Virus record (IMG/VR): IMGVR_UViG_2740892439_000020
Location: 1-15,118 of that record
Reading direction: 5' to 3' (one strand)
DNA: 15,118 nucleotides
From: a virus
Taxonomy: Duplodnaviria > Heunggongvirae > Uroviricota > Caudoviricetes
The position numbers and the translations under genes were made by a program. The notes beneath the pieces were generated by a model. The model saw only the letters and a program-made list of their open reading frames with translations. It ran no database searches and was not told the DNA's origin. Below are positions 1-14,385 of this stretch, piece by piece (positions within the stretch are counted from its first letter, which is position 1; every line of letters starts with the position of its first letter).

Positions 1-192
1 TCAGGAGCATTTCTGATTAACGCCACCGTTAAGAATCCACCCTTCAACAGCTTCACGAAGGTATGATTTGGGGTGGGTTCTGACTGGCTTCGGAAATCCG
101 TGGCGTTTGGTATAGTTCCAGATTGTCTGACGTGATGAAACACCGAGCTTGTTCATCACTTCTTTCTCAGGAATCAGGCTGGTATCGGTCAT
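1..192 (-). CDS. xis: excisionase-like small DNA-binding protein (Xis/AlpA-type HTH)
   Basis: 63-aa ORF; ATG at 190-192 with GGAGA 6 nt upstream; basic HTH-like sequence; sits at the distal end of the leftward early operon where lambdoid phages carry xis; its stop codon is the first triplet of the window, so int would lie outside. Confidence 0.55.
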   Translation of the reverse strand: MTDTSLIPEKEVMNKLGVSSRQTIWNYTKRHGFPKPVRTHPKSYLREAVEGWILNGGVNQKCS

Positions 193-206
193 CTTAATTC
201 TCCAGG

Positions 207-231
207 CAAAAATAAACCGCCATATAGCGGC
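207..231 (-). terminator. hairpin + T-tract element (minus-strand RNA GCCGC-UAUAUG-GCGGU then UUAUUUUUG) just upstream of the xis RBS
   Basis: 4-5 bp GC stem with 6-nt loop followed by T-run on minus strand; member of a repeated element family (see findings). Confidence 0.3.
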
Positions 232-271
232 TCTATCAGATATGAACAGGCCTCATCGAGTGTGAGGCGGG

Positions 272-616
272 TTAGTCCTTGCGTAGTTCGCTGATTCTTC
301 TGTAAGTCTCTGGTGCTTTGTTCCCGTACGTCTTCATTTCAGACTTCAACAGAGCAACGAGTGAATCCCATTCGTTGAGGATTCCTTTGAATGCCGGAAC
401 GCGCTTTGCAACCTTGTCGAATGAATCTCTGATTTCTGGAATCTGCTCAACAAGTGCAACGCATCGCCGGAAGTCTGCTGCGTCATGTGGAGCGCCGAAG
501 CTATGACCATAGATATTCTTTTTCAGGCCACATGCGATTGAGGCAAGAGTTGCGCTACTGATGCCAACATCGCCAGTCGATTGCCATTTCAAAACCTTCA
601 TAGCCAAATCTGACAT
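272..616 (-). CDS. hypothetical phage protein (114 aa)
   Basis: ORF in track 272..643; start moved to ATG 614-616 (MSDLAMKV...) because it has GGAGA 6 nt upstream, whereas the first 9 codons of the longer ORF are a translation of the terminator-like hairpin. Confidence 0.5.
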   Translation of the reverse strand: MSDLAMKVLKWQSTGDVGISSATLASIACGLKKNIYGHSFGAPHDAADFRRCVALVEQIPEIRDSFDKVAKRVPAFKGILNEWDSLVALLKSEMKTYGNKAPETYRRISELRKD

Positions 617-627
617 TTCTTGTCTCC

Positions 628-651
628 AATAAAAAACCGCCATCAGGCGGC
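628..651 (-). terminator. hairpin + T-tract element (minus-strand RNA GCCGCC-UGAU-GGCGG then UUUUUUAUU)
   Basis: perfect 5-bp GC stem CCGCC/GGCGG (637-650), 4-nt loop, U-run; lies at the junction of two small genes. Confidence 0.4.
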
Positions 652-810
652 TTGGTGTTCTTTCAGTTCTTCAATTCGAATATTGGTTATGTCTGCATGT
701 GCTGTCTGCGCCCATAGCATCCAGTGGTCATAGCAGTCATTGATGTTCTCTGCTTCGATAACTCTGTTGAATGGCTCTCCATTCCATTCACCTGTGACTC
801 GAAAGTGCAT
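643..810 (-). CDS. hypothetical small protein (55 aa, MHFRVTGEWNGEPFNRVIEAENINDCYDHW...)
   Basis: ORF not in the six-frame track (under 60 aa); ATG 808-810 with GGAGA 6 nt upstream; TGA at 643-645. Confidence 0.4.
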   Translation of the reverse strand: MHFRVTGEWNGEPFNRVIEAENINDCYDHWMLWAQTAHADITNIRIEELKEHQAA

Positions 811-823
811 TTATCATCTCCAT

Positions 824-846
824 AAAACAAAACCCGCCGTAGCGAG
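824..846 (-). terminator. putative rho-independent terminator
   Basis: minus-strand stem CUCGC/GCGGG (one G-U) followed by UUUUGUUUUAU, immediately upstream of the RBS of the 643..810 gene. Confidence 0.35.
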
Positions 847-850
847 TTCA

Positions 851-878
851 GATAAAAGAAATCCCCGCGAGTGCGAGG
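851..878 (-). terminator. putative rho-independent terminator downstream of the 899..1180 gene
   Basis: minus-strand 6-bp GC-rich stem (CCUCGC/GCGGGG, one G-U) with 4-nt loop followed by AUUUCUUUUAUC. Confidence 0.4.
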
Positions 879-898
879 ATAGTTACTTGTTCATATTA

Positions 899-1180
899 TT
901 AATCGTCAATGTATTTTGAGCATTGTGGGCAATCATCAATCCCACAATACGATTCATATGCATCCTTTATTGCGTCGCGGGCTTCAGTAAGAGTATTGAA
1001 TAAGTTGCAGCTATTATCTTTTTGATATAGGTAAGTTCCTAATTTATAAGCAGAAGAAGCATCATTTCCGCTGTCTAAAATTACATCGTTATGGATTCTG
1101 CACCTTGCAAGAACTCCTGATCCCATAAGGGTCTGCATAGCCCATTGCTCTTGATCTTCACACAAATCATGAATGCTCAT
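899..1180 (-). CDS. small Cys-containing protein (93 aa), possibly Ea8.5-like putative zinc-binding protein
   Basis: ORF 899..1198 in track; start moved to ATG 1178-1180 (MSIHDLCED...) which has GAGAGGTG upstream; C-terminal CGIDDCPQC motif; coding region is visibly AT-rich versus flanks; position corresponds to the ea8.5 slot of lambda. Confidence 0.45.
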   Translation of the reverse strand: MSIHDLCEDQEQWAMQTLMGSGVLARCRIHNDVILDSGNDASSAYKLGTYLYQKDNSCNLFNTLTEARDAIKDAYESYCGIDDCPQCSKYIDD

Positions 1181-1294
1181 TTCAACACCTCTCTTCACGT
1201 TTCACACACGTTAAGATTAACAGTGTTTTTACATGCTTTGGAAGATTTATTTTATAAAAACTCTTTTAATACAAATAGATATAATAGTTCACTA

Positions 1295-2065
1295 TTATAG
1301 CTCCTTTAATCGAGGCGGTTCTGGTAGAGGCATCCAGTGGGTTACCTCTTTGAGATACAGGTCTTCGCCATCACCGTCATCCCAAGTTGGATTGCCATCA
1401 TTAAACCAGTCGCCATATACGCCGACCTGAGTGTTGGGGATGTTTGGTGGGTAGTTGTTTTTAAAGTCAGCTGCTAACACATAGCATTGTCGCTCTCCCA
1501 TTTCTGGCATTCGCTCACTACAGCTTATCCAACCATCCGGAGTTACCGGAGAATTGCCAGACAGCTCGTTCAACTTGTAAGTTTGGCTTACAGGTTCGGC
1601 TTCCAGTTCTGCAATGCGCTTCTCTGCGGCTTCCAGCTTCTCGCGCATATCATCAACGTACTCGACCAGAGATCCGCCAGCAGGAATTTCGCACTCCTCG
1701 ACCAGTTGGAAGTAGATATCAGCTGCGGACCGTGTGTTGCTATGCCTAGCGTCGCCCATCTCACCTTCACGAAGAGCATCGCGTTCTGCGGTAAGATTGG
1801 CTATTTTGCTGTCTTTGCCTTCCAGCTCAACACGCAGTTTCCCTACCGTTAGCGCAATATCCTCGTTCTCCTGATCGCGGAGTTTGATGTATTGCTGGTT
1901 TCTTTCCCGTTCATCCAACAATGCCAGCGCGATATCTGGCGAAAAGTGCTTCATAAAATCGTTAAGCGCATTAATTCGCTGATCGAAAGGCATTACAGGT
2001 GCTTCACCAGCAATTTTTGTTTTTTCAGCGATTTCACGAAGCTTTTGATAATCAATCTTGCTCAC
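1295..2065 (-). CDS. Ead/Ea22-like protein with predicted coiled-coil middle and C-terminal DUF551-like domain
   Basis: 256-aa ORF, GTG start at 2063-2065; central heptad-like charged region (LEAAEKRIAELEAE); C-terminal W...RMPE...VTHWMPLPEPP signature typical of DUF551. Confidence 0.55.
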   Translation of the reverse strand: MSKIDYQKLREIAEKTKIAGEAPVMPFDQRINALNDFMKHFSPDIALALLDERERNQQYIKLRDQENEDIALTVGKLRVELEGKDSKIANLTAERDALREGEMGDARHSNTRSAADIYFQLVEECEIPAGGSLVEYVDDMREKLEAAEKRIAELEAEPVSQTYKLNELSGNSPVTPDGWISCSERMPEMGERQCYVLAADFKNNYPPNIPNTQVGVYGDWFNDGNPTWDDGDGEDLYLKEVTHWMPLPEPPRLKEL

Positions 2066-2306
2066 TGGTTGCCCCCTGCTTTTCTGCCTTCAACACCATG
2101 TGCGAACCATCATCCAGCTCCCACGCGATCTCACCACCTTCAGCCATGACCAGTCGCCACACCAATTGAGCAGCCTCATTGGTAACATCACGACCTGGAT
2201 CATTGCCAACGCGCATACGCCCACCTTCAACATCGCGCATTTTTGCCAGCATGATAGTTTTTGATAGCGGTGAAAAACCAAGCTGTAGTCGTGCTGAATT
2301 ACTCAC
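2052..2306 (-). CDS. hypothetical small protein (84 aa)
   Basis: ORF 2052..2333 in track; start moved to GTG 2304-2306, which has a strong AAAGGAGG 6 nt upstream; overlaps the next gene start by 14 nt. Confidence 0.45.
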
Positions 2307-2469
2307 TGGTTGCCTCCTTTGCGCACATCGCATTCAGATATTTGTTTTTATTCACTGATGGAAAAGAATTTCTCTTAAGCAATTCCTCTCTCGATGGCAT
2401 TGGCTTTACGCGTTGGCGAATAATCATTTCTGCCGGAAGAATGCCGGGATTGTATGCAAGTCCTCTCAT
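2299..2469 (-). CDS. hypothetical small protein (56 aa)
   Basis: part of track ORF 2299..2502; ATG 2467-2469 (MRGLAYNP...) has GAGGAA 7 nt upstream; alternative start at 2484-2486 overlaps the upstream gene. Confidence 0.35.
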
Positions 2470-2479
2470 GGTAAATTCC

Positions 2480-2776
2480 TCAGTCATTACTGATAGCGCC
2501 ATAGCGTGAGCGGTAATTACGCAGGCGCGGGTCGATATATTCAGGGAAGTGGGTATATGTGGCTTTGCGGAATGGTCGGATTGATGTTTCGTTTATTCGG
2601 TCTTTTTCCTGTTTTTCTGCGAGTTGTATATCGCGTCGGTACTTCCGTTCTTCTTTTGTTTCTGGTGGCAGAGCAAGAAACGCGTCGAGATTATTCTTGA
2701 TATTTTCCAGCACCTCCGATATGGAATTGCCGGAACAGCGGCGCGGGTCGTCCGCACCATATAGAGGCGCTGGCAT
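2480..2776 (-). CDS. hypothetical phage protein (98 aa)
   Basis: ATG 2774-2776 with AGGAGA 6 nt upstream; starts 15 nt downstream of the exonuclease stop. Confidence 0.5.
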
Positions 2777-2792
2777 GGTTTTCTCCTGTTGA

Positions 2793-3341
2793 TTATTTAG
2801 CTAACTTTTTCCAGATCGCTGAAACGTATTTGGCTTGGTGAATGGCATCATCAAGCGCGTTGTGGCGAGTTCCTTTGAATGGCATATCTCGCTTAGGGTC
2901 GAATCCTATTACCTTCCCAAGTTCGACGATTGTTCTTACGTCGCGGTCATTCCACCACTGCCACGGAACTGGCTGCCCTGTCAGCGAATAACTGTTTCGG
3001 AGAATAACGCAGTCAAATGATGCTCCATTCCCCCAAACCTGAACGAATTTGTGGTTAGCGTTCTTTATGATGAATTCAGATAACCATGAAAGAGCCGTTG
3101 AAAGCTCCTGAGTGTTGCTGGTTAGCGATTTTCTGGCTTCTTCACTCTGTTCCAGCCACCATAAAATCGTTGAAGCGTCAGGACGCGCCCGATATCGCAT
3201 TGATGACTCAAGCGAGATATTTACCGAGAACTCTTCTCCTGTTTCTCCGGTATTCGGGTCAAAGAATACCGCCCCAATAGAAATAACTGGCGCATATGGC
3301 CCGTTGCCCATTGTTTCAAGGTCAACCATTAAGTGATTCAT
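2793..3341 (-). CDS. DEDDh-family (DnaQ-like) 3'-5' exonuclease
   Basis: 182 aa; Exo I motif MVDLET, Exo II WGNGASFDCVIL, Exo III HNALDDAIHQAKY; AAGGA RBS. Confidence 0.75.
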   Translation of the reverse strand: MNHLMVDLETMGNGPYAPVISIGAVFFDPNTGETGEEFSVNISLESSMRYRARPDASTILWWLEQSEEARKSLTSNTQELSTALSWLSEFIIKNANHKFVQVWGNGASFDCVILRNSYSLTGQPVPWQWWNDRDVRTIVELGKVIGFDPKRDMPFKGTRHNALDDAIHQAKYVSAIWKKLAK

Positions 3342-3349
3342 GTAAGTCC

Positions 3350-3856
3350 TTAAATTGCGTGAATAGCGTGACGAGGGAAGGGGAGAGTTACTGGTGCAAA
3401 GGGTATATCGTCGTCAAAATCCATCGGTGGTTCGTTGTGTTGTGCTGGTGATGATTGCTGCTGTGGCTTCTGTGATTGCCTGCTGGCTGCTTGTTGTTTG
3501 CTGTCGCCAATTCCGCCAAGCATTTGCATCACGCCATTAATTCCGACATGAACCTCGGTTGTGTAACGGTCTTGCCCTGACTGGTCTTTCCACTTTCTGG
3601 TTCTCAGCATTCCCTCGAAATAAATCTGATCACCTTTTTTCACATACTGCCCCACGACCTCAGCCAGTTTCCCGGATACAGCAACACGATGCCATTCAGT
3701 CAATTCCTTTTGCTCGCCAGTATTTTTATCTCGCCATTGTTCTGACGTGGCTATTGTCAGGTTAGCGAACGCTGTACCTGATGGTGAGTATCGAACTTCC
3801 GGGTCTTGTCCTACCCGACCAAGGATAATCACCTTATTTACGCCTCTGCTTGCCAT
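3350..3856 (-). CDS. ssb: single-stranded DNA-binding protein (SSB)
   Basis: 168 aa; N-terminal OB-fold region nearly colinear with E. coli SSB ([33 protein letters not shown]), Gly/Gln-rich linker, acidic C-terminal tail DFDDDIPF. Confidence 0.9.
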
Positions 3857-4564
3857 TTATGCCGCCTGTTTTAGTTCGTTAACTCTGATGTTCATTACCT
3901 GAACGCATTTAGCCTGCGCCTCCTCATTGCCAGCCATTAATTGCCAGTCACGCTGATAACGCTCGATGAGTTTTTTCTTGTCAGTTTCTGTTGACGCATA
4001 ATCGCTGAAGTCTTTCAGGATTTGTTCGCAGTCAACCGATGGAGATTTCTGGTTGGTATTTTCTGGTGATGGTTTGTTATCTGATGCTGGTATTGCCCAT
4101 CCCGGCAGCGATGGAGGGAGCCAGTAAAATCCTGTTCCATCCTTCAGTTTTGCCCTGTGCCACCCCTGCTTTTTATCGAGAGATGTTTGTGCGAAACCTT
4201 CCTCAAGGTTATACAGATACCGACCGATTCCCCACTGAACGGCAGCGCGCTTCATTGCACCGGAACGACCACCTTTGACGGCTTCTACCTGCGTGTTTTC
4301 AGCAGCATCCCATTTGGTTACCCATTCGGAATCAATCTTTATTGATATGCCGCATTCAACGCCTCCGTTGTTGGGAATATCGCGGTATTCATTGCGCCAT
4401 CCTGCTTTTCCGCAAACATCGTCCAGGCGTTTCATGATTGCCCGGTTCGTGACATAAGCCAGCACCATAGCCCACACTTTGCCATCGCGTGTTTTACCGC
4501 TTTGCTGTATTCGCCATTCGATATCTTCAGGGCCGAATGGCTCATCGAATTTATTCAAATCCAT
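3857..4564 (-). CDS. single-strand annealing protein (Rad52/Erf-like recombinase)
   Basis: 235 aa; directly abuts ssb (TAA then ATG); N-terminal annealase-like region with RAAVQWGIGRYLYNL motif; GAGGTGA RBS; sub-family assignment uncertain. Confidence 0.65.
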   Translation of the reverse strand: MDLNKFDEPFGPEDIEWRIQQSGKTRDGKVWAMVLAYVTNRAIMKRLDDVCGKAGWRNEYRDIPNNGGVECGISIKIDSEWVTKWDAAENTQVEAVKGGRSGAMKRAAVQWGIGRYLYNLEEGFAQTSLDKKQGWHRAKLKDGTGFYWLPPSLPGWAIPASDNKPSPENTNQKSPSVDCEQILKDFSDYASTETDKKKLIERYQRDWQLMAGNEEAQAKCVQVMNIRVNELKQAA

Positions 4565-4651
4565 AATTCACCTCAGAATGGACATGGCCCAAGGAAATAA
4601 CGCTGATTTAATACTTCAGTCTTTGCCGCATTTAAAAATACGCGAACACCT

Positions 4652-4822
4652 TCACGATCTCCCTTCTGGCGATACATTAACGCCTGCTGCGTGTACATGC
4701 GTCTCTGTAACTTGCTCTCCTTCACTGTGGTTGCGAGTGACATGAATATCTCCTTCGTTACCGATTAATTCTTTCATCTGACGAATGAATTCTTCGTCTG
4801 ACCAGTTATCTGTAAAACTCAT
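4652..4822 (-). CDS. hypothetical small acidic protein in the kil position (56 aa)
   Basis: ATG 4820-4822 overlaps the cIII-like stop as ATGA; part of track ORF 4652..4852. Confidence 0.4.
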   Translation of the reverse strand: MSFTDNWSDEEFIRQMKELIGNEGDIHVTRNHSEGEQVTETHVHAAGVNVSPEGRS

Positions 4823-4989
4823 GGACGGCCTTGTTGTTTCAAAATATCCCAAAGCTTTTCGAGCAAACTTTTCATTCTTGGTTGTTTAAAGTCTGCTCCG
4901 GTTAAAATGTTTTTTCGTGAATGCTGTACCGATAAAATCGGGTTGAAAGGGCGAACCGATGCCGCCCCTGCAATAGCGAACTGTTGCAT
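4819..4989 (-). CDS. cIII: CIII-like protein (FtsH/HflB inhibitor family), 56 aa
   Basis: ATG 4987-4989 with AAGGAG 7 nt upstream; N-terminal MQQFAIAG and C-terminal SLLEKLWDILKQQGRP resemble lambda CIII (MQYAIAG...ESLLER...RLIDILNQPGVP); the track ORF extends further 5' without an RBS. Confidence 0.55.
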   Translation of the reverse strand: MQQFAIAGAASVRPFNPILSVQHSRKNILTGADFKQPRMKSLLEKLWDILKQQGRP

Positions 4990-5051
4990 AGGATGCTCCT
5001 TCTGTTTGATTACATAACGAAAACGCCTCGAGTGAAGCGTTATTGGTATGC

Positions 5052-5079
5052 ATATAAAAAATCCCTCACACTGGAGGGC
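5052..5079 (-). terminator. putative rho-independent terminator (tL-type) upstream of cIII
   Basis: minus-strand stem CCCUC/GAGGG with 6-nt loop followed by AUUUUUUAUAU. Confidence 0.45.
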
Positions 5080-5141
5080 AAAGAAGATTTCCAATAATCA
5101 GAACAAGTCGGCTCCTGTTTAGTTACGAGCGACATTGCTCC

Positions 5142-5169
5142 GTGTATTCACTCGTTGGAATGAATACAC
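5142..5169. repeat. perfect 9-bp inverted repeat GTGTATTCA-N10-TGAATACAC
   Basis: read directly from sequence; intergenic between the membrane protein gene and cIII; no U-tract on the minus (transcribed) strand. Confidence 0.6.
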
Positions 5170-5196
5170 AGTGCAGTGTTTATTCTGTTGTTTATG

Positions 5197-5224
5197 CCAA
5201 AAATAAAGGACGATTATGCGGCCT
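5197..5224 (-). terminator. weak hairpin + UUUAUUUUUG element just after the membrane protein gene stop
   Basis: imperfect stem on minus strand followed by the same T-tail decamer seen at 207-216 and 5719-5728. Confidence 0.25.
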
Positions 5225-5228
5225 GAAA

Positions 5229-5678
5229 TTACTTAACCAATGATGCTGCATATTCGATAAGATAAAGTTTTGGGGCCAGCCAAATTTTTAACCAAGTCAT
5301 ATTGGTTACTACACCAATAATAAAAATCCCCCACAGAGTCAAAACTCCAACCAATGGCATGATAAGAAGGTTAATATCTCCTTTGCTATCCCAAACCATT
5401 GTCGGCCTGTATTTGGGATTTCCCCTCTCCCATGAGTATCCTTCATCACCGATTTTACCTGTCTCAACTCTTTGGCACTGCTTCTTCATAAACCAGAAAA
5501 CCAGTGGGATTGTTAGAATGGCTATTAATGTTTTAATCAGACTGTCAACCATATTCCATAGCAGCAACTGATGAACAACATCAGGAATCTGTGCTTGGCT
5601 AAATGAAACAGCAGCATCTATTCCATTGCTGGCTTTTTGCAGTAGTTCTACGAGAATCTTGTTTGCTTGTTCTTCCAT
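5229..5678 (-). CDS. predicted inner-membrane protein with two transmembrane helices (149 aa); possible superinfection-exclusion-type protein
   Basis: hydrophobic segments LIKTLIAILTIPLVFWFM and LLIMPLVGVLTLWGIFIIGVV; ATG 5676-5678 with AAGGTGA upstream; sits between N and cIII; function is inference only. Confidence 0.5.
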   Translation of the reverse strand: MEEQANKILVELLQKASNGIDAAVSFSQAQIPDVVHQLLLWNMVDSLIKTLIAILTIPLVFWFMKKQCQRVETGKIGDEGYSWERGNPKYRPTMVWDSKGDINLLIMPLVGVLTLWGIFIIGVVTNMTWLKIWLAPKLYLIEYAASLVK

Positions 5679-5718
5679 ATATCACCTTGATTGTAATAAG
5701 CATGAAATTATTTACGGA

Positions 5719-5746
5719 CAAAAATAAAGGCCACCATCAGGCAGCC
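5719..5746 (-). terminator. hairpin + T-tract element (tL1-type) between N region and membrane protein gene
   Basis: minus-strand 7-bp stem GGCUGCC/GGUGGCC (two G-U), loop UGAU, then CUUUAUUUUUG. Confidence 0.4.
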
Positions 5747-5817
5747 TTGTAGTTCTGTTTACCAAGTTCTCTGGCAATCATTGTCGTCGTTCGTATTGTC
5801 CACACCATTGATTTTTA

Positions 5818-5904
5818 TCAATAGTCGTAGTCATACGGATAGTCCTGGTATTGTTCCATCACATCCTGAGGATGCTCTTCGAACTCATCAAATTCTTCTT
5901 CCAT
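5818..5904 (-). CDS. 28-aa highly acidic mini-protein (MEEEFDEFEEHPQDVMEQYQDYPYDYDY)
   Basis: not in ORF track; ATG 5902-5904 with GAGGTGA 3-5 nt upstream, immediately after the N stop codon. Confidence 0.3.
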   Translation of the reverse strand: MEEEFDEFEEHPQDVMEQYQDYPYDYDY

Positions 5905-5912
5905 ATCTCACC

Positions 5913-6212
5913 TCAAATAAGTGGTTTACTGCCTAATTTCATTTTCTGGCGACCAACACAAGTCACACCCATTTCACTGCGTGGCTTGCGGTAGTAAATA
6001 CGATTCTGTTTACGCTCGATTTCTTCTGCCTTCTTGCAGCGAAGGCTTCCGAGTGATGCTGCTTTGTCTGCTCTGACGCAACCAGAGAGCTTTAGCGCAA
6101 TTTTTCGCGCCAGTGCTTCATTACTGCGTCGCTCGGCAATAAGTTCTGCTCTGCGAGCTTTGTAGCGGCTTTTTGCCGTACCTTTGGATTCTTTCCAGAC
6201 AATGGTTACCAT
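5913..6212 (-). CDS. N: antitermination protein N (phi21-type arginine-rich motif)
   Basis: ATG 6210-6212 with AAAGGAG 6 nt upstream (track ORF starts at 6242 without an RBS); N-terminal ARM GTAKSRYKARRAELIAERR as I recall for phage 21 N; first gene downstream of pL/nutL. Confidence 0.7.
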   Translation of the reverse strand: MVTIVWKESKGTAKSRYKARRAELIAERRSNEALARKIALKLSGCVRADKAASLGSLRCKKAEEIERKQNRIYYRKPRSEMGVTCVGRQKMKLGSKPLI

Positions 6213-6322
6213 GATGGTCTCCTTTAAGTGGCTTTGGCGCATGACGCGTCGAGGTGCTTATCTTCTCGATCGCTGTCTTGCAGCTGCAATTCGCGCCATC
6301 CCCAAAACCACTCAAGTTCTGG

Positions 6323-6363
6323 TCTCAACGGTTAGGTTGAGAGTCCGTCGATGTTAAAGAGCC
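6323..6363 (-). promoter_or_regulatory. nutL: nutL site: boxA (GCTCTTTAACA) and boxB hairpin (UCUCAAC-CUAACC-GUUGAGA)
   Basis: boxA consensus-like 11-mer at 6352-6362 on minus strand, then a perfect 7-bp stem hairpin at 6323-6342, between pL and N. Confidence 0.65.
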
Positions 6364-6404
6364 TGCCAATCTGTTCCGTTTGGCTTCCAGCGTCCTGCTG
6401 ATGG

Positions 6405-6464
6405 CTTAAATTTAAGACTTCTTAATTTATTGGTCAAGTGCATTTTTGAAGAAAACTTAATTTT
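6405..6464 (-). promoter_or_regulatory. pL promoter with OL operators
   Basis: minus-strand -35 TTGACC (6432-6437), 17-nt spacer, -10 TAAATT (6409-6414); P22-type operator-like 18-mers with TTAAG/CTTAA half-sites at 6410-6427 and 6445-6462; 12-bp perfect palindrome CTTAAATTTAAG at 6405-6416. Confidence 0.5.
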
Positions 6465-6500
6465 ATGGGCGTGAATTTAGTTTGTCTTTGATTTTTAACG

Positions 6501-6528
6501 GGAAATAAAAAAGGGGCGAAAGCCCTTA
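6501..6528 (-). terminator. putative terminator immediately after the repressor gene
   Basis: minus-strand GGGC-UUUC-GCCC hairpin followed by CUUUUUUAUUU, starting at the repressor stop codon. Confidence 0.4.
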
Positions 6529-7176
6529 AGGAAGGTTTGCTAGCTTGGCATCAACGACAACGCCAATGATTTTACAGTTCCCATTGATTTCAATCATTGG
6601 GTATTGTGGATTGAGTGGTTTCAGGAATTTTCTACCGGCATCAATAACTAACTTTTTGAATGTCGCCTCGTTTTCTCCTTCAAGTTTGGCGACTACCAGC
6701 TTTCCATTACGTGGTTCGACTTCTGGGTCGACGAGAATAATCATCCCCTCAGGAATACTCAGTCCTGCCGGGGCAGTCATTGAATCGCCTTTAACGTCGA
6801 GCCAAAAAGAGTCTTCAGAACAATCTACCGTTGTGTCGTACCAGTTATCTATTGCACGCCTATGATATGGCTCTACAGCTTCCATCCAACATCCTGCGCT
6901 TACCCAACTAATTAGAGGATATGAACCTCTTGGATCATGCCTGCTGTGATAGGCAATGTTTGAAAGACTATCCTCTCCTTTCAACAGGTAATCAGGGGAG
7001 CACTGCAAAGCCTTGGCTAAGGCCAATAGGTTTTCGCCATTGGGCTCAGTTTCAGATCGCTCCCATTGGGAAATAGCAACATTAGACACGCCAACCATCT
7101 TGCCAAGGGCAGCCTGCCTAATCTTGAGTTCTTTTCTGCGAGCGCGAATACGCTCACCCATCAGTTGTGTATTCAT
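6526..7176 (-). CDS. c2: prophage repressor, C2/CI type (N-terminal HTH, C-terminal LexA-like S24 self-cleaving domain), P22 C2-like
   Basis: 216 aa; N-terminal domain (MNTQLMGERIRARR..QAALGKMVGVSNVAISQWERSE) matches my recollection of the P22 C2 DNA-binding domain; C-terminal Ser-Lys peptidase region (GDSMTAPAG...KLVVAKL...TFKKL); divergent from cro across an operator region. Confidence 0.85.
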   Translation of the reverse strand: MNTQLMGERIRARRKELKIRQAALGKMVGVSNVAISQWERSETEPNGENLLALAKALQCSPDYLLKGEDSLSNIAYHSRHDPRGSYPLISWVSAGCWMEAVEPYHRRAIDNWYDTTVDCSEDSFWLDVKGDSMTAPAGLSIPEGMIILVDPEVEPRNGKLVVAKLEGENEATFKKLVIDAGRKFLKPLNPQYPMIEINGNCKIIGVVVDAKLANLP

Positions 7177-7245
7177 AGTTAAGACATCTTAAATAAACTT
7201 GACTTAAGATTCCTTTGGTGGATAATTTAAGTGTTCTTTAATTTC
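7177..7245. promoter_or_regulatory. OR operator region with pR (and divergent pRM)
   Basis: three 18-bp P22-type operator-like sites of form ANTNAAG-N4-CTTNANT at 7177-7194, 7202-7219, 7225-7242; pR -35 TTGACT 7199-7204 and -10 GATAAT 7221-7226 on plus strand. Confidence 0.6.
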
Positions 7246-7256
7246 GGAGCGAGTCT

Positions 7257-7442
7257 ATGTACAAAAAAGATGTTATTGACCACTTCGGAACCCAGCGTGC
7301 TGTTGCTAAAGCACTAGGCATTAGCGATGCAGCAGTCTCTCAGTGGAAAGAAGTTATCCCAGAGAAAGACGCCTATCGATTGGAAATCGTTACAGCTGGC
7401 GCCCTGAAGTATCAAGAAAGTGCTTACCGCCAAGCGGCATAA
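7257..7442 (+). CDS. cro: Cro repressor (P22 Cro-like)
   Basis: 61 aa; GGAG RBS; HTH QRAVAKALGISDAAVSQW; sequence matches my recollection of P22 Cro; divergent from repressor. Confidence 0.85.
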   Translation: MYKKDVIDHFGTQRAVAKALGISDAAVSQWKEVIPEKDAYRLEIVTAGALKYQESAYRQAA

Positions 7443-7449
7443 GCAAATT

Positions 7450-7489
7450 GCTCTTTAACAGTTCTGGCCTTTCACCTCTAACCGGGTGA
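7450..7489 (+). promoter_or_regulatory. nutR: nutR site: boxA (GCTCTTTAACA) and boxB hairpin with CUAACCG loop
   Basis: boxA 7450-7460 identical to the nutL boxA; boxB stem UCACC/GGUGA at 7472-7489 shares the CUAACCG loop sequence with nutL boxB. Confidence 0.6.
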
Positions 7490-7498
7490 GCAAACATC

Positions 7499-7525
7499 AG
7501 CGGCAAATCCATTGGGTGTGCCGCT
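7499..7525 (+). other. 7-bp inverted repeat AGCGGCA-N13-TGCCGCT (candidate tR1-region structure, no U-tract)
   Basis: read from sequence between nutR and the cII-like gene; lambda tR1 is rho-dependent, which is consistent with absence of a T-run. Confidence 0.3.
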
Positions 7526-7557
7526 ATAACTCAATATCAATATAGGAAAATTAACAA

Positions 7558-7854
7558 ATGGCACAAGCAAGCTACAGCAAGCCAACACAGCGAGAAATTG
7601 ATCGCGCTGAAACTGATTTACTCATCAACCTGTCAACGCTTACCCAGCGCGGTCTGGCAAAGATGATTGGCTGTCATGAATCGAAGATAAGCAGAACGGA
7701 CTGGAGGTTTATTGCTTCGGTCTTGTGTGCTTTCGGAATGGCATCAGACATCAGTCCGATTAGCAGGGCTTTTAAGTATGCGCTTGATGAAATCACAAAG
7801 AAAAAATCCCCGGCCGCCACCGAGGATTTTAAGCAAATTGATATGCAATTCTGA
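7558..7854 (+). CDS. cII: CII-family transcriptional activator
   Basis: 98 aa; HTH region and C-terminal KKKSPAATEDFKQIDMQF resemble lambda CII (NKKRPAATERSEQIQMEF); follows cro and nutR. Confidence 0.75.
   Translation: MAQASYSKPTQREIDRAETDLLINLSTLTQRGLAKMIGCHESKISRTDWRFIASVLCAFGMASDISPISRAFKYALDEITKKKSPAATEDFKQIDMQF
7567..7580 (-). promoter_or_regulatory. candidate CII-binding site of pRE (TTGC-N6-TTGC direct repeat)
   Basis: minus strand reads TTGCTGTAGCTTGC inside the 5' end of the cII-like gene, the position and form of the lambda pRE activator site. Confidence 0.45.
7797..7826 (-). terminator. oop-type antisense terminator within the 3' end of the cII-like gene
   Basis: minus-strand hairpin (7807-7826) followed by AUUUUUUCUUUG; same location as the lambda oop RNA terminator. 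Confidence 0.45.
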
Positions 7855-7886
7855 GGGAATTACTGGATCAATCCACAGGAGTAATT

Positions 7887-8048
7887 ATGACAAAACGTCG
7901 TAAGAAATACCAGGAAAAAGAAGAGATTCGACACCCTGATTCACCTGAGGGATTAGTGGTAGCCGCAGCAAATAACAGGGCGTTCGCAGAGCGCCTTGTT
8001 GGTGTTTACAGACTAGCCAAAGCAGGAGTGAAACATGGGCGTCGTTAA
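7887..8048 (+). CDS. small basic protein (53 aa, [53 protein letters not shown])
   Basis: not in ORF track; ATG 7887-7889 with AGGAG 6 nt upstream; ends 14 nt inside the O-like gene. Confidence 0.45.
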   Translation: MTKRRKKYQEKEEIRHPDSPEGLVVAAANNRAFAERLVGVYRLAKAGVKHGRR

Positions 8049-8796
8049 GTTAGCTGATTACAGGCCTCAACTGGAGGTCGTGGAGCATCGCGTGGCAGAT
8101 ACCGAAGATGGTTTCATGCGCGTTGCTAACGAGATTACCGACAGTCTGCTGATGGCTGATTTAACCGTCCGGCAGTTGAAGGTGATGCTCGCTATCATGC
8201 GCAAGACATACGGATTCAATAAGCCGATGGATCGACTCACAAACACGCAGATAGCAGCCATGACAGGTATTCATCACACTCATGTTTGCGCTGCCAAGCG
8301 CCAGCTTATCGAGCGTAAATTCCTCATTGCTGATGGCGTGAAAATCGGAGTGAACAAGGTGGTTTCTCAGTGGATTAGCCAGGACAGCTTAACATTAGCT
8401 AAAACAGCTAATAAAACATTAGCCGAGTCGGCTAATGGGTATAAGCCAAGTCAGCTAAACACAAAAGACAATATACAAAAGACAATAAATACAAATACCC
8501 CCTTACCCCCTAACGGGGGCGGCGATTGGCAGGTTAAACCTGAACGTCGCAAGGCAGAACGAATCGACTACGAATCCTTCCTGAACGCCTACAACGCCGA
8601 AGTCGGTGACAGACTTCCACACGCTGTTGCGGTCAACGAGAAACGCAAACGCCGCCTGAAGAAAATCATCCCGCAACTGAAAACGCCAAACGTGGACGGT
8701 TTCAGAGCGTATGTCAGGGCGTTTGTGCATCAGCCAAGCCGTTTTACTTCGGAGACAACGACACTGGCTGGACGGCAGATTTTGATTACCTGCTGA
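8035..8796 (+). CDS. O: replication initiation protein, lambda O-like N-terminal domain (possibly 3'-frameshifted, see findings)
   Basis: 253 aa as read; AGGAG RBS; N-terminal region [37 protein letters not shown] resembles lambda O (DLTKRQFKVLLAILRKTYGWNKPMDRITDSQ); iterons inside the gene. Confidence 0.8.
8394..8500. repeat. candidate replication origin: ATTAGC/GCTAAT iteron-like palindromes followed by an AT-rich tract
   Basis: palindromes ATTAGCT-AAAAC-AGCTAAT (8394-8412) and ATTAGCCGA-G-TCGGCTAAT (8418-8436), a degenerate third copy near 8441-8458, then AT-rich 8459-8500; inside the O-like coding region as for ori-lambda. Confidence 0.5.
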
Positions 8797-8851
8797 GGGA
8801 AGATTCGTTAACGGGAGTACGGGAAGGGAAGTTTGCAGACAGGGGGATAGC

Positions 8852-10228
8852 ATGAGACAGGATATCGAAGCGAGCGTTATCGGTGGCCTGCTGATTGGTG
8901 GATTAACACCAACTGCCAGTGACGTTCTGGCAACGCTTGAGCCGGAAGCGTTTTCAATTCCGCTCTACCGGAAAGCCTTCGAGGTTATCCGCAAGCAGGC
9001 GAGAAACAGAAACCTAATCGACGCGCTGATGGTTGCCGAGGCGTGCGGAGAGGAGCATTTCACGTCAATCCTGATGACCAGCAAAAACTGCCCGAGCGCC
9101 GCAAACCTGAAGGGATATGCCGGAATGGTCGCGGATAACTATCACCGCCGTCTGGTGCTGGAAATCATGGATGAAATGCGTGAACCAATTCAGAGCGGAA
9201 CCATCGATACATCGAGTCAGGCGATGGACGAGCTTGTAAAGCGTCTTTCAGCCATCAGAAAGCCCCGTGACGAGGTTAAACCTGTACGGTTAGGGGAAAT
9301 CATCACTGACTACACTGACACGCTTGACAGGCGTCTGAGGAACGGAGAAGAGTCAGATACCCTGAAGACCGGAATCGAAGAACTTGATGTCATCACCGGA
9401 GGGATGAACGCGGAAGACCTGGTGATAATCGCTGCCCGTCCTGGCATGGGGAAAACCGAACTGGCGCTGAAGATTGCCGAAGGCGTTGCAAGCCGCGTTA
9501 TTCCTGGTTCTGACGTCCGGCGCGGAGTATTGATTTTCTCAATGGAAATGAGCGCATTGCAGATTGCAGAGCGAAGCATTGCCAACGCCGGGAGGATGTC
9601 GGTTAGCGTACTGCGAAATCCTGCATCGATGGATGACGAAGGCTGGGCGCGTGTTGCTAACGGCATGAGTCAGCTTGCAGATTTGGATGTATGGGTAGTC
9701 GATGCCTCGCGGTTATCGGTCGAAGAAATACGCTCAATCGCAGAACGACACAAACAGGAAAATCCAAACCTGTCACTCATCATGGCGGATTATCTTGGCC
9801 TGATTGAGAAGCCGAAAGCAGACCGCAACGACCTCGCAATTGCTCACATCTCCGGAAGCCTGAAGGCGATGGCGAAAGACCTGAAAACGCCTGTTATCTC
9901 CCTAAGTCAGCTTTCGCGCGATGTTGAGAAGCGACCAAACAAACGCCCGACAAACGCAGATTTGCGTGATTCAGGAAGCATTGAGCAGGACGCAGACTCA
10001 ATCATCATGCTCTATCGGGAAGCGGTATATGACGAGAACAGTAGCGCCGCGCCATTTGCTGAAATCATCGTGACGAAAAACCGTTTTGGCTCGCTTGGTA
10101 CGGTTTACCAGCGGTTCTGTAACGGACATTTTGTTGCATGTGACCAGGATGAAGCCAGACAGATTTGCACAGCATCAAATGCACCCGCTGCACGTGGCAG
10201 ACGATATGCACAAGGGGCTGACGTATGA
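8852..10228 (+). CDS. DnaB-family replicative DNA helicase (P22 gene 12-like, replaces lambda P)
   Basis: 458 aa; DnaB N-terminal domain; Walker [13 protein letters not shown]; Walker B and RecA-fold motifs ([18 protein letters not shown]); follows the O-like gene. Confidence 0.9.
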
Positions 10229-10253
10229 CCATCTACATCACTGAGCTAATAAC

Positions 10254-10286
10254 AGGCCTGCTGGTAATCGCAGGCCTTTTTATTTG
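10254..10286 (+). terminator. rho-independent terminator (tR2-like) after the helicase gene
   Basis: perfect 8-bp stem AGGCCTGC/GCAGGCCT with 8-nt loop followed by TTTTTATTT. Confidence 0.65.
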
Positions 10287-10300
10287 GGGGAGGGTAAATC

Positions 10301-10507
10301 GTGGCTGAGTTAATTTTCTCTGCATTGAGGATTCTTGGTGCTATGTGGATGGTGGCGACGTTCATTGTGGTTGCCAGCAGTTTTGTCCGGTTGGTAGGCG
10401 AAGGTAAAGACCTGGTGGGTGTGCTTTTCGGTAGCATTTTCCTGTGGGTGATTATCGGTGTTGCGCCTGTCGCTGTAGCAAAAATGGCGTGGCGTTTTGT
10501 GAGTTGA
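10301..10507 (+). CDS. small membrane protein with two predicted TM helices (68 aa)
   Basis: GTG start 10301-10303 with GGGGGAGGG 6 nt upstream; hydrophobic segments MWMVATFIVVASSFV and VLFGSIFLWVIIGVAPVAVA. Confidence 0.45.
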   Translation: MAELIFSALRILGAMWMVATFIVVASSFVRLVGEGKDLVGVLFGSIFLWVIIGVAPVAVAKMAWRFVS

Positions 10508-10524
10508 ACTGATGGTAAGTACCG

Positions 10525-10845
10525 ATGGACGAATCAAGAAAGCAGTTTGAAGAAAGCTGGTTGCGACGTGGGGGCGAATCTTCAGACCTTATCCGTTACC
10601 CTGAAAATCACCATGAAATTGGCAGCGGTAATATTGGTGGTCAATACGTGATGGTCGATGTTCAAGGCCACTGGCAAACGTGGCAGGCATCGCGATCAGC
10701 TATTGAAATAACCGCGCCAAAGTTTATCGACAGCAGAGAAGCATTAGCCAAAGGGTTTACTGTTGATTATTCCAATGGCTTCGGTGATGCAATGGATGCT
10801 TATGAGGAAAACATCCGCGCTGCTGGAGTCAAATTGAAGGAGTAA
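10525..10845 (+). CDS. hypothetical phage protein (106 aa)
   Basis: ORF with coding-like composition between helicase and ninB; weak RBS. Confidence 0.5.
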   Translation: MDESRKQFEESWLRRGGESSDLIRYPENHHEIGSGNIGGQYVMVDVQGHWQTWQASRSAIEITAPKFIDSREALAKGFTVDYSNGFGDAMDAYEENIRAAGVKLKE

Positions 10846-10847
10846 CG

Positions 10848-11258
10848 ATGAAGCAAACAATCTTCCTCCGAAGTAAGCAACAACAGCAAGCCGCAATAAA
10901 TGCCATCCTCGCAACACCACTCGATAAAGACAAGCCAGTCACCATCCGCATTACTGACTACAAGCGCAATCTTGACCAGAACGCAAAATTTCACGCGATG
11001 CTGGCGGATATCGCTCGTCAGGTTCAATGGTGCGGCAAATGGTTAAAACCGGAACAGTGGAAGGTTTTGTTGATTAGCGGTCATGCAGTGGCAACAAAAC
11101 AGGAAGCTGATGTTTTGCGCGGCCTTGAAGGCGAATTCGTCAACATTCGCGAAAGCAGCGCGCAGATGAGCGTGAAGCGTATGGCAAGTCTGATCGAGTA
11201 CACAACAGCCTGGGCTATTGGTCAGGGTGTCAGATTTACCGACAGGAGGTACGAATGA
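10848..11258 (+). CDS. ninB: NinB (Orf-family recombination mediator)
   Basis: 136 aa; AAGGAG RBS; similarity to lambda NinB/Orf ([25 protein letters not shown] vs lambda LDQNRKLWACLGDVSRQVEWHGRWL). Confidence 0.8.
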
Positions 11259-11431
11259 GACGACAGCGACGAAGTATCACCGACATAATCTGCGAAAACT
11301 GCAAATACCTTCCAACGAAACGCTCCAGAAATAAACGCAAGCCAATCCCAAAAGAATCTGACGTAAAAACCTTCAATTACACAGCTCACCTGTGGGATAT
11401 CCGGTGGCTAAGATATCGTGCGAGGAAATGA
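11255..11431 (+). CDS. ninE: NinE
   Basis: 58-aa ORF not in track; ATGA overlap with ninB stop; AGGAGG RBS; [30 protein letters not shown] matches my recollection of lambda NinE. Confidence 0.75.
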
Positions 11432-11787
11432 CAATGGATTATTCACAGTTAAGTGATTTTGAAATTAACAGAATGGTAGGAGACATAATTTTTAAAGGCC
11501 TTTGGGCAAGTAAACCGGAAACATCAGGGAATAACACCAACAAATGGTATTACGGAAATGCTGATACAACTTTTGAGCCATTAAACCCTTTACCTGACTA
11601 CTGCAATGATCCTAGCGCCTCATGGCCGATTATTGAGAAATACAGGATTAGCATTATCAATCTCGATGAAGACGAGTGGGGTGCACGTGGTGTGGCCGAC
11701 TGTAAATCTAAGCGAGCTATACATGAAAATTCCCTCCGCGCCGCCATGATTGTCTTTCTCATGATGCAGGACGCCAATAATGCTTAG
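11428..11787 (+). CDS. NinX-like hypothetical protein (about 118 aa)
   Basis: ATG 11428 overlaps the ninE stop as ATGA (alternative ATG 11434 with GAGGAAA RBS); track ORF starts further upstream at GTG 11392 inside ninE; position between ninE and ninF as for P22 ninX. Confidence 0.55.
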
Positions 11788-11956
11788 CCCATCCCAATCC
11801 CTCCAATACCAGAAAGAAAGCGTCGAGCGGGCTTTAACGTGCGCTAACTGCGGTCAGAAGCTGCATGTGCTGGAAGTTCACGTGTGTGAGCACTGCTGCG
11901 CAGAACTGATGAGCGATCCGAATAGCTCAATGTACGAGGAAGAAGACGATGGCTAA
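11780..11956 (+). CDS. ninF: NinF
   Basis: 58-aa ORF not in track; [40 protein letters not shown] (Cys-rich) matches my recollection of lambda NinF; overlaps both neighbours. Confidence 0.75.
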
Positions 11957-12560
11957 ACCAGCGCGAAGACGATGTAAAAACGATGAATGTCGGGAATGGT
12001 TTCACCCTGCATTCGCTAATCAGTGGTGGTGCTCTCCAGAGTGTGGAACCAAGATAGCACTCGAACGACGAAGTAAAGAACACGAAAAAGCGGAAAAAGC
12101 AGCAGAGAAGAAACGACGACGAGAGGAGCAGAAACAGAAAGATAAACTTAAGATTCGAAAACTCGCCTTAAAGCCCCGCAGTTACTGGATTAAACAAGCC
12201 CAACAAGCCGTAAACGCCTTCATCAGAGAAAGAGACCGCGACTTACCATGTATCTCGTGCGGAACGCTCACGTCTGCTCAGTGGGATGCCGGACATTACC
12301 GGACAACTGCTGCGGCACCTCAACTCCGATTTGATGAACGCAATATTCACAAGCAATGCGTGGTGTGCAACCAGCACAAAAGCGGGAATCTCGTTCCGTA
12401 TCGCGTCGAACTGATTAGCCGCATCGGGCAGGAAGCAGTAGACGAAATCGAATCAAACCATAACCGCCATCGCTGGACTGTCGAAGAGTGCAGGGCCATC
12501 AAGGCGGAGTATCAGCAGAAACTCAAAGACCTGCGAAATAGCAGAAGTGAGGCCGCATGA
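11949..12560 (+). CDS. ninG: NinG (Rap-family recombination-associated endonuclease)
   Basis: 203 aa; Cys-rich N-terminus and lysine-rich region as in lambda NinG; gene order. Confidence 0.85.
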
Positions 12561-12763
12561 CGTTCTCAGTAAAAACCATTCCAGACATGCTCGTTGAAGC
12601 ATACGGAAACCAGACAGAAGTAGCACGCAGACTGAAATGTAGTCGCGGCACGGTAAGAAAATACGTTGATGATAAAGACGGGAAAATGCACGCCATCGTC
12701 AACGACGTTCTCATGGTTCATCGCGGATGGAGTGAAAGAGATGCGCTATTACGAAAAAATTGA
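12557..12763 (+). CDS. ninH: NinH
   Basis: 68 aa; ATGA overlap with ninG stop; matches lambda NinH in length and HTH-like sequence. Confidence 0.8.
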
Positions 12764-13406
12764 TGGCAGCAAATACCGAAATATTTGGGTAGTTGGCGAC
12801 CTGCACGGATGCTACACGAACCTGATGAACAAACTGGATACGATTGGATTCGACAACAAAAAAGACCTGCTTATCTCGGTGGGCGATTTGGTTGATCGCG
12901 GTACAGAGAACGTCGAATGTCTGGAATTAATCACATTCCCCTGGTTCAGAGCTGTACGTGGAAACCATGAGCAAATGATGATTGATGGCTTATCAGAGCG
13001 TGGAAACGTTAATCACTGGCTGCTTAATGGCGGTGGCTGGTTCTTTAATATCGATTACGACAAAGAAATTCTGGCTAAAGCTCTTGCCCATAAAGCAGAA
13101 GAACTTCCGTTAATCATCGAACTGGTGAGCAAAGGTAAAAAATATGTCATTTGCCACGCCGATTATCCTTGTGATGAATACGAGTTTGGAAAGCCAGTTG
13201 ATCATCAGCAGGTAATCTGGAACCGCGAACGAATCGGCAACTCACAAGACGGGATCGTGAAAGAAATCAAAGGCGCGGACACGTTCATCTTTGGTCATAC
13301 GCCAGCAGTGAAACCACTCAAATTTGCCAACCAGATGTATATCGATACCGGCGCAGTGTTCTGCGGAAACCTCACATTGATTCAGGTACAGGGAGAAGGC
13401 GCATGA
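12741..13406 (+). CDS. ninI: NinI serine/threonine protein phosphatase (lambda PPase family)
   Basis: start moved to ATG 12741 (GGAGTGAAAGAG RBS) from track start 12666; metallophosphatase motifs GDLHG, GDLVDRG, GNHE, GHT. Confidence 0.9.
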
Positions 13407-14026
13407 GACTCGAAAGCGTAGCTAAATTTCATTCGCCAAAAAGCCCGATGATGAGCGACTCACCACGGGCTACGGCTTCTGACTCTCTTTCCGGTACTGA
13501 TGTGATGGCTGCTATGGGGATGGCGCAATCACAAGCCGGATTCGGAATGGCTGCATTCTGCGGTAAGCATGAACTCAGCCAGAACGACAAACAAAAGGCT
13601 ATCAACTATCTGATGCAATTTGCACACAAGGTATCGGGGAAATACCGTGGTGTGGCAAAGCTTGAAGGAAATACTAAGGCAAAGGTACTGCAAGTGCTCG
13701 CAACATTCGCTTATGCAGATTATTGCCGTAGTGCCGCGACGCCGGGGGCAAGATGCAGAGATTGCCACGGTACAGGCCGTGCGGTTGATATAGCCAAAAC
13801 GGAGCAGTGGGGGAGAGTTGTTGAGAAAGAGTGCGGAAGATGCAAAGGTGTCGGCTATTCAAGAATGCCAGCAAGCGCCGCATATCGCGCTGTAACGATG
13901 CTAATCCCAAACCTTACTCAACCCACCTGGTCACGCACTGTTAAGCCGCTGTATGACGCTCTGGTGGTGCAATGCCACAAAGAAGAGTCAATCGCAGACA
14001 ACATTTTGAATGCGGTCACACGCTAG
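13403..14026 (+). CDS. Q: late-gene antiterminator Q (lambda Q type)
   Basis: 207 aa; ATGA overlap with ninI stop; zinc-binding CRDCHGTG...CGRCKG motifs; sequence matches my recollection of lambda Q; followed by a lambda-type pR'. Confidence 0.9.
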
Positions 14027-14068
14027 CAGCATGATTTCCACGGATGGCAACATATTAACGGCATGATA

Positions 14069-14110: not shown

Positions 14111-14132
14111 GATAAATGCACTCGTTAAATAA

Positions 14133-14342: not shown

Positions 14343-14385
14343 TTATTCCTAATTAAATAGAGCAAATCCCTTATTGGGCTAAGAC

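Follow-up and report, generated by a model that had tools for sequence, protein, structure and literature searches.

Does a small membrane-protein gene located between the antiterminator gene N and cIII serve to exclude other phages, and is the acidic mini-ORF beside it a part of the same module? The question was raised by IMG/VR virus record IMGVR_UViG_2740892439_000020 (Caudoviricetes), positions 1 to 15,118; this whole stretch of 15,118 nucleotides (nt) is called the window. At positions 5,197 to 5,912 an initial annotation had described a 149-aa protein with two transmembrane (TM) segments and a 28-aa acidic open reading frame (ORF), and had proposed the protein as a candidate exclusion determinant insulated by terminators. 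We found that this picture of an ‘insulated exclusion module’ had to be corrected. The mini-ORF is orf28 of phage lambda; along with a dead ral gene, the ral terminator and the small RNA (sRNA) PreS with its terminator tL2a, it represents already known lambda biology. The 149-aa protein belongs to a catalogued, uncharacterised family, that of Sf6 gene 34 (PHROG 3054).

The window showed mosaic matches to lambdoid and P22-like phages, for example, mEp235, HK544, Gally and Kapi1, and the balance tips slightly towards the view that the region is an ordinary mosaic segment of the leftward early (PL) operon of such a phage, on the minus strand. The placement between N and cIII, already given in the initial annotation, was borne out by matches to phrog_271 and Pfam N_peptide on one side and to phrog_550 on the other. 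The elements follow each other along PL in the order N, orf28, ral remnant, ral terminator, the cassette with the 149-aa gene, PreS/tL2a and cIII (Table 1). The presence of the ral remnant also agrees with the earlier statement that this slot carries host-interaction genes.

The 149-aa protein and its family

The hmmscan match of the 149-aa product to phrog_3054 was full length (residues 1-149 versus profile positions 1-137 of 137), and all 99 aligned relatives matched the same PHROG. With Sf6 gene 34 the protein shares, besides the full-length profile match, the two-TM architecture and the position downstream of N and ral and upstream of the tL2a boundary sequence. The Sf6-type allele, on the other hand, is 140 aa long, compared to 149 aa here, and the two are about 50% identical. 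The slot is also the one occupied by HF4s_0037 (‘TM helix-containing protein’) and GALLYPH_30. An exhaustive search (E <= 1e-3) produced 1879 clusters at 50% identity; the listed members were almost all 120-180 aa long and free of domain fusions. The identical protein was found on at least 1000 contigs, where its names were only ‘hypothetical protein’ or ‘phage transmembrane protein’. Among close relatives the pN/pS ratio was 0.16, and none of 50 alleles had an internal stop codon. By these sequence measures, the gene is shown to be real and under purifying selection.

The product had no match in Pfam (E <= 1) or in NCBIfam. For the 99 aligned relatives, Pfam returned scattered chance matches to unrelated TM families only, and PHROG searches with all relatives returned only families that were unannotated or labelled ‘membrane protein’. 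A profile search of the PDB sequences gave nothing beyond noise from the TM segments of G protein-coupled receptors (GPCR). A Foldseek comparison of the AlphaFold2 model with PDB had no match, while a fold search of BFVD with this model retrieved uncharacterised phage proteins only. In the literature on phrog_3054, on Sf6 gene 34 (gp34) and on lambdoid early-left membrane proteins, no functional study was found. Membership in PHROG 3054, a family catalogued without a function, says nothing on mechanism.

Hydropathy placed the hydrophobic segments at residues ~46-64 and ~106-124, and the AlphaFold2 model (mean predicted local distance difference test score, pLDDT, of 85) had helices at residues 2-69, 106-125, 128-134 and 136-148, with a loop at 70-105. 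From the initial description of a 149-aa two-TM protein with a soluble N-terminus, the coordinates, the two hydrophobic segments and a non-hydrophobic N-terminal stretch of 45 aa were retained. Conservation was observed in the N-terminal 45 residues (L9, F26, P32, V34, Q37-L39 and W41) and in the C-terminal ~20 residues (I132, A135-K137, L140, E142, the invariant Y143, A145 and L147), where it marks out a helix, WLKIWxAPKLYLIEYAAxLxK. The variable parts of the family alignment were TM1, the loop and TM2. Two TM segments along with conserved termini, the features by which members can be recognised, were present in the alignment, in the hydropathy profile and in the AlphaFold2 model.

We also observed that the flanks of the inter-TM loop were richer in K/R than the flanks of the termini in 130 of the 143 family representatives. 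The mean number of K/R within 8 residues after TM1 was 2.4, compared to 0.5 before TM1, and the N-terminal segment is acidic, with a net charge of about -4. Since, under the positive-inside rule, such loop flanks argue for an N-out/C-out topology, the protein is likely to insert as a helical hairpin with a basic cytoplasmic loop, having both conserved ends, the acidic 45-aa N-terminus and the C-terminal helix, in the periplasm. A separate feature of the loop is the semi-conserved motif P-T-x-x-x-D-x-x-G-D/E at residues ~90-101, just before TM2; the pattern D..G[DENS] occurred in 35 of the 143 representatives and resembles a cation-binding loop.

Members of the family were found in a variety of genome slots. 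In Pantoea prophages a member directly follows the holin, lysozyme and spanin genes; in PhiR46_1 it is situated between Rz and the terminase gene, and in a P22-like late operon between genes 4 and 10. A Vibrio myophage has it inside the structural module on the opposite strand, and other slots were beside head-tail connector genes or in a replication/nin-type region. N4-like phages carry members in their early/middle regions, near genes of RNA polymerase II, dUTPase or thymidylate synthase, and a member was also present in an rV5-like phage. Because of this spread over many genome slots, in temperate as well as virulent phages, the family is, judging by its genomic distribution, an accessory function encoded by one autonomous, dispensable gene and of use in lytic growth too. 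In this respect the initial annotation was correct in treating the small membrane protein as an accessory gene, of the two-TM and horizontally mobile kind. All the named hosts among 177 phage records with a homologue were Proteobacteria, in agreement with a role directed at the periplasm. The Ralstonia jumbo phage RsoM2USA (MG752970.1) had three separate matches to the 149-aa protein, pointing to paralogues in one virulent genome.

The inserted cassette and its transcription

Relative to lambda and phage 21, the 149-aa gene is carried by a 521-bp insertion, which sits exactly after the ral terminator. A 12-bp direct repeat of the terminator T-tract, CCTTTATTTTTG, flanks the insertion (5730-5719 and 5209-5198), and beyond the second repeat there is 100% identity with the intergenic region of lambda between ral and ea10. 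When compared to the orf28-ral-tL2a/PreS segment of lambda (33.9-34.36 kb), the window has kept orf28, the start, the 3' end and the stop codon of ral, the terminator and the downstream intergenic region; it differs by a 103-bp deletion in ral and by the cassette, which, by the alignments, is inserted between ral (behind its terminator) and the predicted PreS. In addition, orf28 directly follows N, as in phage 21, and the lambda sieB/tL1 segment is absent.

The pseudogene of ral (restriction alleviation) had been missed by the initial annotation; it fills the space from the mini-ORF, which it overlaps, to the terminator. A DNA search with positions 5750-5925 matched the ral genes of lambda, 21, P22, Sf6 and many others, and in most of the ral-matching records the match was split into two pieces spanning about 275 nt, compared to 176 nt in the query. 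Both ends of ral are preserved in the window, the start codon (ATG, 5834-5832) as well as the 3' part leading into the stop codon (TGA, 5739-5737), and so is the terminator. Inside the gene 103 bp are missing; the junction, at about 5795/5794, falls on a CAAT microhomology. Owing to the resulting frameshift, only a stub of 18 aa remains (5834-5778); the intact frame of about 66 codons that defines Ral is absent from the window.

In E. coli PK12 the same allele bears the label ‘antirestriction Ral family protein, frameshifted’, assigned by the Prokaryotic Genome Annotation Pipeline (PGAP). The same deletion was present in 10 of 80 related IMG/VR loci. Phage E212 matched the query in one undivided piece and so appears to carry it as well. 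Most of the listed E. coli genomes that matched the whole 801-bp query also did so in one piece, as opposed to two pieces for genomes with intact ral. Given the recurrence of one allele in E212, in the IMG/VR loci and in E. coli genomes, the sequence comparisons indicate that the deletion is not a sequencing artefact. Many E. coli prophages harbour the deleted allele, some along with the 149-aa gene and others without it, and orf28 stays intact.

The initial annotation had the membrane gene bracketed by terminators, one at 5719-5746 and further ones after the 149-aa ORF. The former is indeed strong: for the hairpin 5748-5727, with a T-tract to 5719, dG was -17.6 kcal/mol (z = -4.4), and 0 of 200 shuffled sequences folded as well. 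It is, however, the conserved terminator of ral itself rather than an insulator of the membrane gene. The first of the downstream elements, a hairpin at 5224-5199, proved to be degenerate (dG -5.1, z = +0.29, with 121 of 200 shuffles folding as well) and is not a credible terminator. The next credible ones are at 5078-5063, which is lambda tL2a, and at 5041-5022. Since the downstream segment corresponds to lambda PreS/tL2a, the ‘further terminator-like elements’ seen earlier are largely the PreS terminator. The hairpin at 5022-5041 (minus strand), an 8-bp stem followed by a T-run, falls within the extended ORF 4819-5094, a short distance upstream of the cIII start.

A consensus scan, which is a crude tool, found no sigma-70 promoter in the 40 nt from the T-tract end (5719) to the ATG (5678) of the 149-aa gene. 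Promoter scans upstream of homologues in other slots gave no convincing consensus promoter either. In HF4s the gap from N to the gene of the 149-aa family is 8 nt, and the same distance separates the end of an N-type ORF from the gene in at least 9 of the 80 near-identical loci. The fact that the gene follows N so closely in relatives argues that it is an early PL gene and not a prophage-expressed moron. We consider it quite probable, from the sequence context, that the 149-aa gene has no promoter of its own here and is read from PL with the help of N past the ral terminator, being expressed early in lytic growth and silent in the repressed prophage. N would let RNA polymerase through the ral terminator, and the PL transcript would then reach the gene. 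Such a gene would be delayed-early in the window, being behind the ral terminator and in need of N, and immediate-early in HF4s-like phages.

The junction containing the ribosome-binding site (RBS) and the start codon, GAGGTGAtATATGGAAGAA, precedes orf28 or the 149-aa gene alike. Among the 80 loci, the junction CCACTTATTTGAGGTGAtAT-ATGGAAGAA stood before orf28 in some and before the 149-aa gene in others, with both genes beginning ATGGAAGAA. As the same junction precedes either gene, the RBS/start region seems to act as a module junction; it looks like a short recombination linker by which modules could be swapped at the start codon. A 17-19-nt version, (A/G)AGGTGA(T/G)ATATGGAAGAA, was observed on the minus strand before orf28 (5902-5915) and before the 149-aa gene (5676-5690), as well as in loci L014-L093. 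In relatives, the RBS/start junction connects either orf28 or the 149-aa gene to N.

Lambdoid morons, such as HK97 gp15 and lambda bor, provide a natural comparison. The likeness lies in one accessory gene whose conserved flanks occur with or without it, and the family occupies typical moron sites; in the window the 521-bp insertion has just this present/absent character. The difference is that neither an own promoter nor a functional own terminator was detected for the window gene, and that the cassette would depend on PL and N. No consensus promoter was found, with the reservation that weak or non-consensus promoters escape a sequence scan, and the 3' hairpin was no better than shuffled sequence.

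The possible role of the 149-aa protein

For the function of the protein we tentatively favour, at well below even confidence, an autonomous accessory role at a conserved envelope component of the already infected cell, most likely one of hindering the DNA entry of a secondary phage or another envelope-level attack during lytic growth. The conserved periplasm-facing termini would engage this component, and secondary DNA entry or another attack on the envelope would be hindered as a result. T4 Imm, an early gene of a virulent phage, would then be the functional analogue rather than SieB, in the sense of an analogy and not of family membership. Imm and P22 SieA, which block DNA entry, resemble the 149-aa protein in being small single-gene inner-membrane proteins, again by analogy only. 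In SieA, three TM segments and, on the cytoplasmic side, the motif FxRYPxEAxxFNK have been described (PMC10883804). The 149-aa protein, in contrast, has two TM segments and lacks the motif, and its family profile aligned to P22 SieA with an hhalign probability of 0.3%.

Several points weigh against the envelope-level role or its premises. The conservation of the termini across very different morphotypes argues against a target in the injection apparatus of one phage. The positive-inside rule is the sole basis of the topology, which requires translocation of a 45-residue N-tail without a signal peptide. The database names of homologues give no pointer to the function of the protein, and the fold searches were uninformative. 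As to expression, a weak promoter candidate, TTGTCC-17-TATTAC, could be read by eye (8/12 and without the final T), and in some genomes the gene is opposite in strand to its neighbours and would need its own promoter there.

We weighed three other explanations. In the first, which follows the initial annotation, the protein would be a SieB- or Abi-type exclusion determinant, a terminator-insulated moron expressed in the prophage to protect the lysogen. In lambda and P22 this slot does hold sieB and ral, the protein is a small inner-membrane one, and the family behaves as a mobile single-gene cassette at classic moron positions (after Rz, in late operons, once on the opposite strand). Still, comparisons with exclusion and defence proteins, along the lines of the check that had been suggested, came out negative: hhalign probabilities for the family profile were all below 1% (lambda SieB 0.1%, P22 SieB 0.5%; P22 gp17 also in the 0.1-0.5% range), and PADLOC-DB 2.0 contained no defence family matching the 149-aa product at E <= 1. 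The SieB proteins of lambda and P22 share with it the N-ral neighbourhood and the character of a membrane-associated lambdoid accessory protein. According to the annotation of the lambda and P22 records, however, sieB has its own promoter, is transcribed against PL and is expressed in the lysogen, while the 149-aa gene is on the PL strand, has no detectable promoter and no similarity to SieB in sequence or profile. No promoter was found upstream, and the ‘terminator’ downstream is degenerate. Moreover, only 8 nt separate the gene from N in many relatives, which joins it to the N transcript, and the repression of PL in lysogens argues against a prophage-expressed exclusion gene. Members of the family also occur in virulent phages of the N4-like, rV5-like and jumbo kinds; these phages form no lysogens. 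We therefore regard this explanation as improbable. It is even less probable, and the least so of the three, that the protein is a lysis-timing component (holin, antiholin or lysis regulator). Its small size and its two TM segments would suit such a function, and so would the positions after the holin, lysozyme and spanin genes in Pantoea prophages and in the Rz-terminase gap of PhiR46_1. Yet there was no holin match in Pfam or PHROG, the gene is located in early regions far from the lysis genes in the window and in most relatives, and lambdoid and P22-like phages already have complete lysis cassettes. Besides, TM segments are conserved in holins but variable in the 149-aa family.

Somewhat less unlikely is an N-in/C-in topology. 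The conserved helices at the two ends would then contact a conserved host factor in the cytoplasm or close to the membrane, for instance, a protease, a protein of cell division or a defence effector bound to the membrane, and the protein would serve host takeover or counter-defence like its PL neighbours cIII and Kil. Such a role fits the probable early expression beside cIII and kil homologues and the presence in early regions of virulent phages, and the conservation of the termini across phages of Escherichia, Vibrio, Pseudomonas and Ralstonia suggests a host target rather than a phage target. On the other hand, N-out/C-out is the orientation favoured for 130 of 143 members under the positive-inside rule, neither a partner nor a homologue is known, and the gene is found in late operons too.

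The 149-aa protein is among the commoner uncharacterised phage membrane proteins, and a pattern with conserved termini and variable TM segments and loop is unusual. Knowing its function would allow thousands of phage genomes to be annotated and might bring to light a general tactic at the envelope level. Returning to the role in the envelope, we put forward, with slightly more reserve than for the single protein, the idea that the Sf6 gene 34 family may consist of unrecognised, widespread envelope modifiers that block secondary DNA entry or envelope attack in lytic growth, with orf28 as an acidic Ral cofactor being a secondary possibility. If true, the family would be a general ‘lytic-cycle immunity’ protein.

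orf28, PreS and the neighbouring genes

The initial annotation noted a 28-aa acidic ORF with a good RBS just after N; both its coordinates and its RBS were confirmed, as the ORF starts 8 nt past the N stop codon behind the ribosome-binding site GAGGTGA. The lambda orf28 translation is MEEEFEEFEEHPQDVMEQYQDYPYDYDY, with 27 of 28 residues identical to the window ORF. The lambda record has orf28 at 34271-34357 (complement) and ral at 34087-34287, an overlap of 17 nt; in the window orf28 overlaps the ral start by the same 17 nt. A comparison of 12 distinct alleles gave 15 variable sites outside the ral overlap, of which 13 were third codon positions (binomial p = 3e-5), and the replacements were few and mostly conservative. 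Because the substitutions favour third codon positions, orf28 is shown, at the level of sequence variation, to be a real coding sequence under purifying selection. The 28-aa product had no match in Pfam or NCBIfam, nor any PADLOC-DB 2.0 family at E <= 1.

Of the 80 IMG/VR loci, 25 have ral in intact or deleted form, and 24 of these also have orf28; all the other 55, with the membrane gene but no ral, lack it. Such co-occurrence (24/25 versus 0/55) indicates that orf28 belongs with ral and not with the membrane protein. We rejected the mini-ORF and the membrane gene as a functional pair, as 55 of the 80 loci have the membrane gene without orf28 or ral.

Could orf28 work together with Ral, for example, by targeting type I restriction enzymes as an acidic mimic or cofactor, rather than being an independent peptide? 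Its occurrence in 24 of 25 ral-carrying loci and never without ral, an overlap with ral that is compatible with translational coupling, constraint at the protein level and the 13 acidic residues out of 28 all point in this direction. However, the linkage could merely reflect the physical overlap, and in the window orf28 is intact although ral is broken. Lambda orf28 is annotated as hypothetical, and a CRISPR interference (CRISPRi) screen scored it as non-essential (PMC10695390); its knock-down caused no plating defect, but in a host without type I restriction (PMC10695390). On balance we hold the partnership to be doubtful. The constraint on orf28 and its tie to ral nevertheless offer a cheap testable lead on the incompletely understood Ral mechanism.

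Outside positions 5,197 to 5,912, a homologue of PreS (LPR1) was identified; it is 100% identical to the lambda ral-ea10 intergenic region over the aligned stretch and ends at tL2a (hairpin 5078-5063, U-tract 5061-5056). In lambda, PreS is an Hfq-dependent sRNA of about 88 nt, located between ral and ea10, with tL2a as its 3' end, and it up-regulates host dnaN (bioRxiv 10.1101/2024.10.31.621285). In the Sf6 record, the homologous hairpin carries the name tL2A, and a ‘boundary sequence’ is marked at this site. An Rfam scan of 4700-6600 found no family; Rfam 15 has no PreS model.

Table 1. Features of the window discussed in the text (coordinates in the window).
Feature	Position	Strand	Basis or remark
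cI/C2-type repressor gene	6526-7176		upstream of N in gene order
Antiterminator N gene, phage 21 type, 99 aa, first PL gene	5913..6212	-	phrog_271 E = 9.6e-37; Pfam N_peptide
lambda orf28 (lambdap47) homologue, 28-aa acidic Tyr-rich small protein	5818..5904	-	phrog_16060 E = 4.6e-18
ral (restriction alleviation) pseudogene	5737..5834	-	alignment with lambda, imm21 and Sf6 ral and with the lambda Ral translation
Intrinsic terminator overlapping the ral stop codon	5719..5748	-	9-bp stem and T-tract; conserved in lambda, phage 21 and Sf6
521-bp insertion relative to lambda and phage 21, carrying the 149-aa gene	5210..5730	-	alignments and sequence
149-aa inner-membrane protein, two TM segments, Sf6 gene 34 / PHROG 3054 family	5229..5678	-	phrog_3054 E = 2.8e-64
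Degenerate copy of the ral terminator hairpin and T-tract, 3' end of the insertion	5199..5224	-	aligns with the lambda ral terminator
Predicted homologue of lambda PreS (LPR1) Hfq-dependent sRNA	5055..5145, 5' end approximate	-	lambda identity and terminator scan
cIII homologue (FtsH inhibitor), next PL gene downstream	4819..4989 (about)	-	phrog_550 E = 4e-22
Erf/Rad52-type recombinase gene	3857-4564		

The DNA of N matched the N gene of imm21/phage 21, with the stop codon at 5913-5915. BstA is a known prophage abortive-infection family, and in a related prophage of E. coli PK12 (L009, 4025-4930) a gene for a ‘BstA C-terminal domain-containing protein’ is located between N and the repressor gene; the window has no BstA-type gene between N (6212) and the repressor gene (6526). 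On the cIII side, the phrog_550 match covered residues 36-91 of the extended ORF 4819-5094. Further downstream, two overlapping small ORFs on the minus strand, 4573-4743 and 4652-4852, matched PHROGs 1723 and 2123, each labelled ‘recombinase’. They correspond to HK97 gp42/42.1 and to Sf6 genes 29/30, are situated upstream of the Erf-type gene and are probably recombination cofactors.

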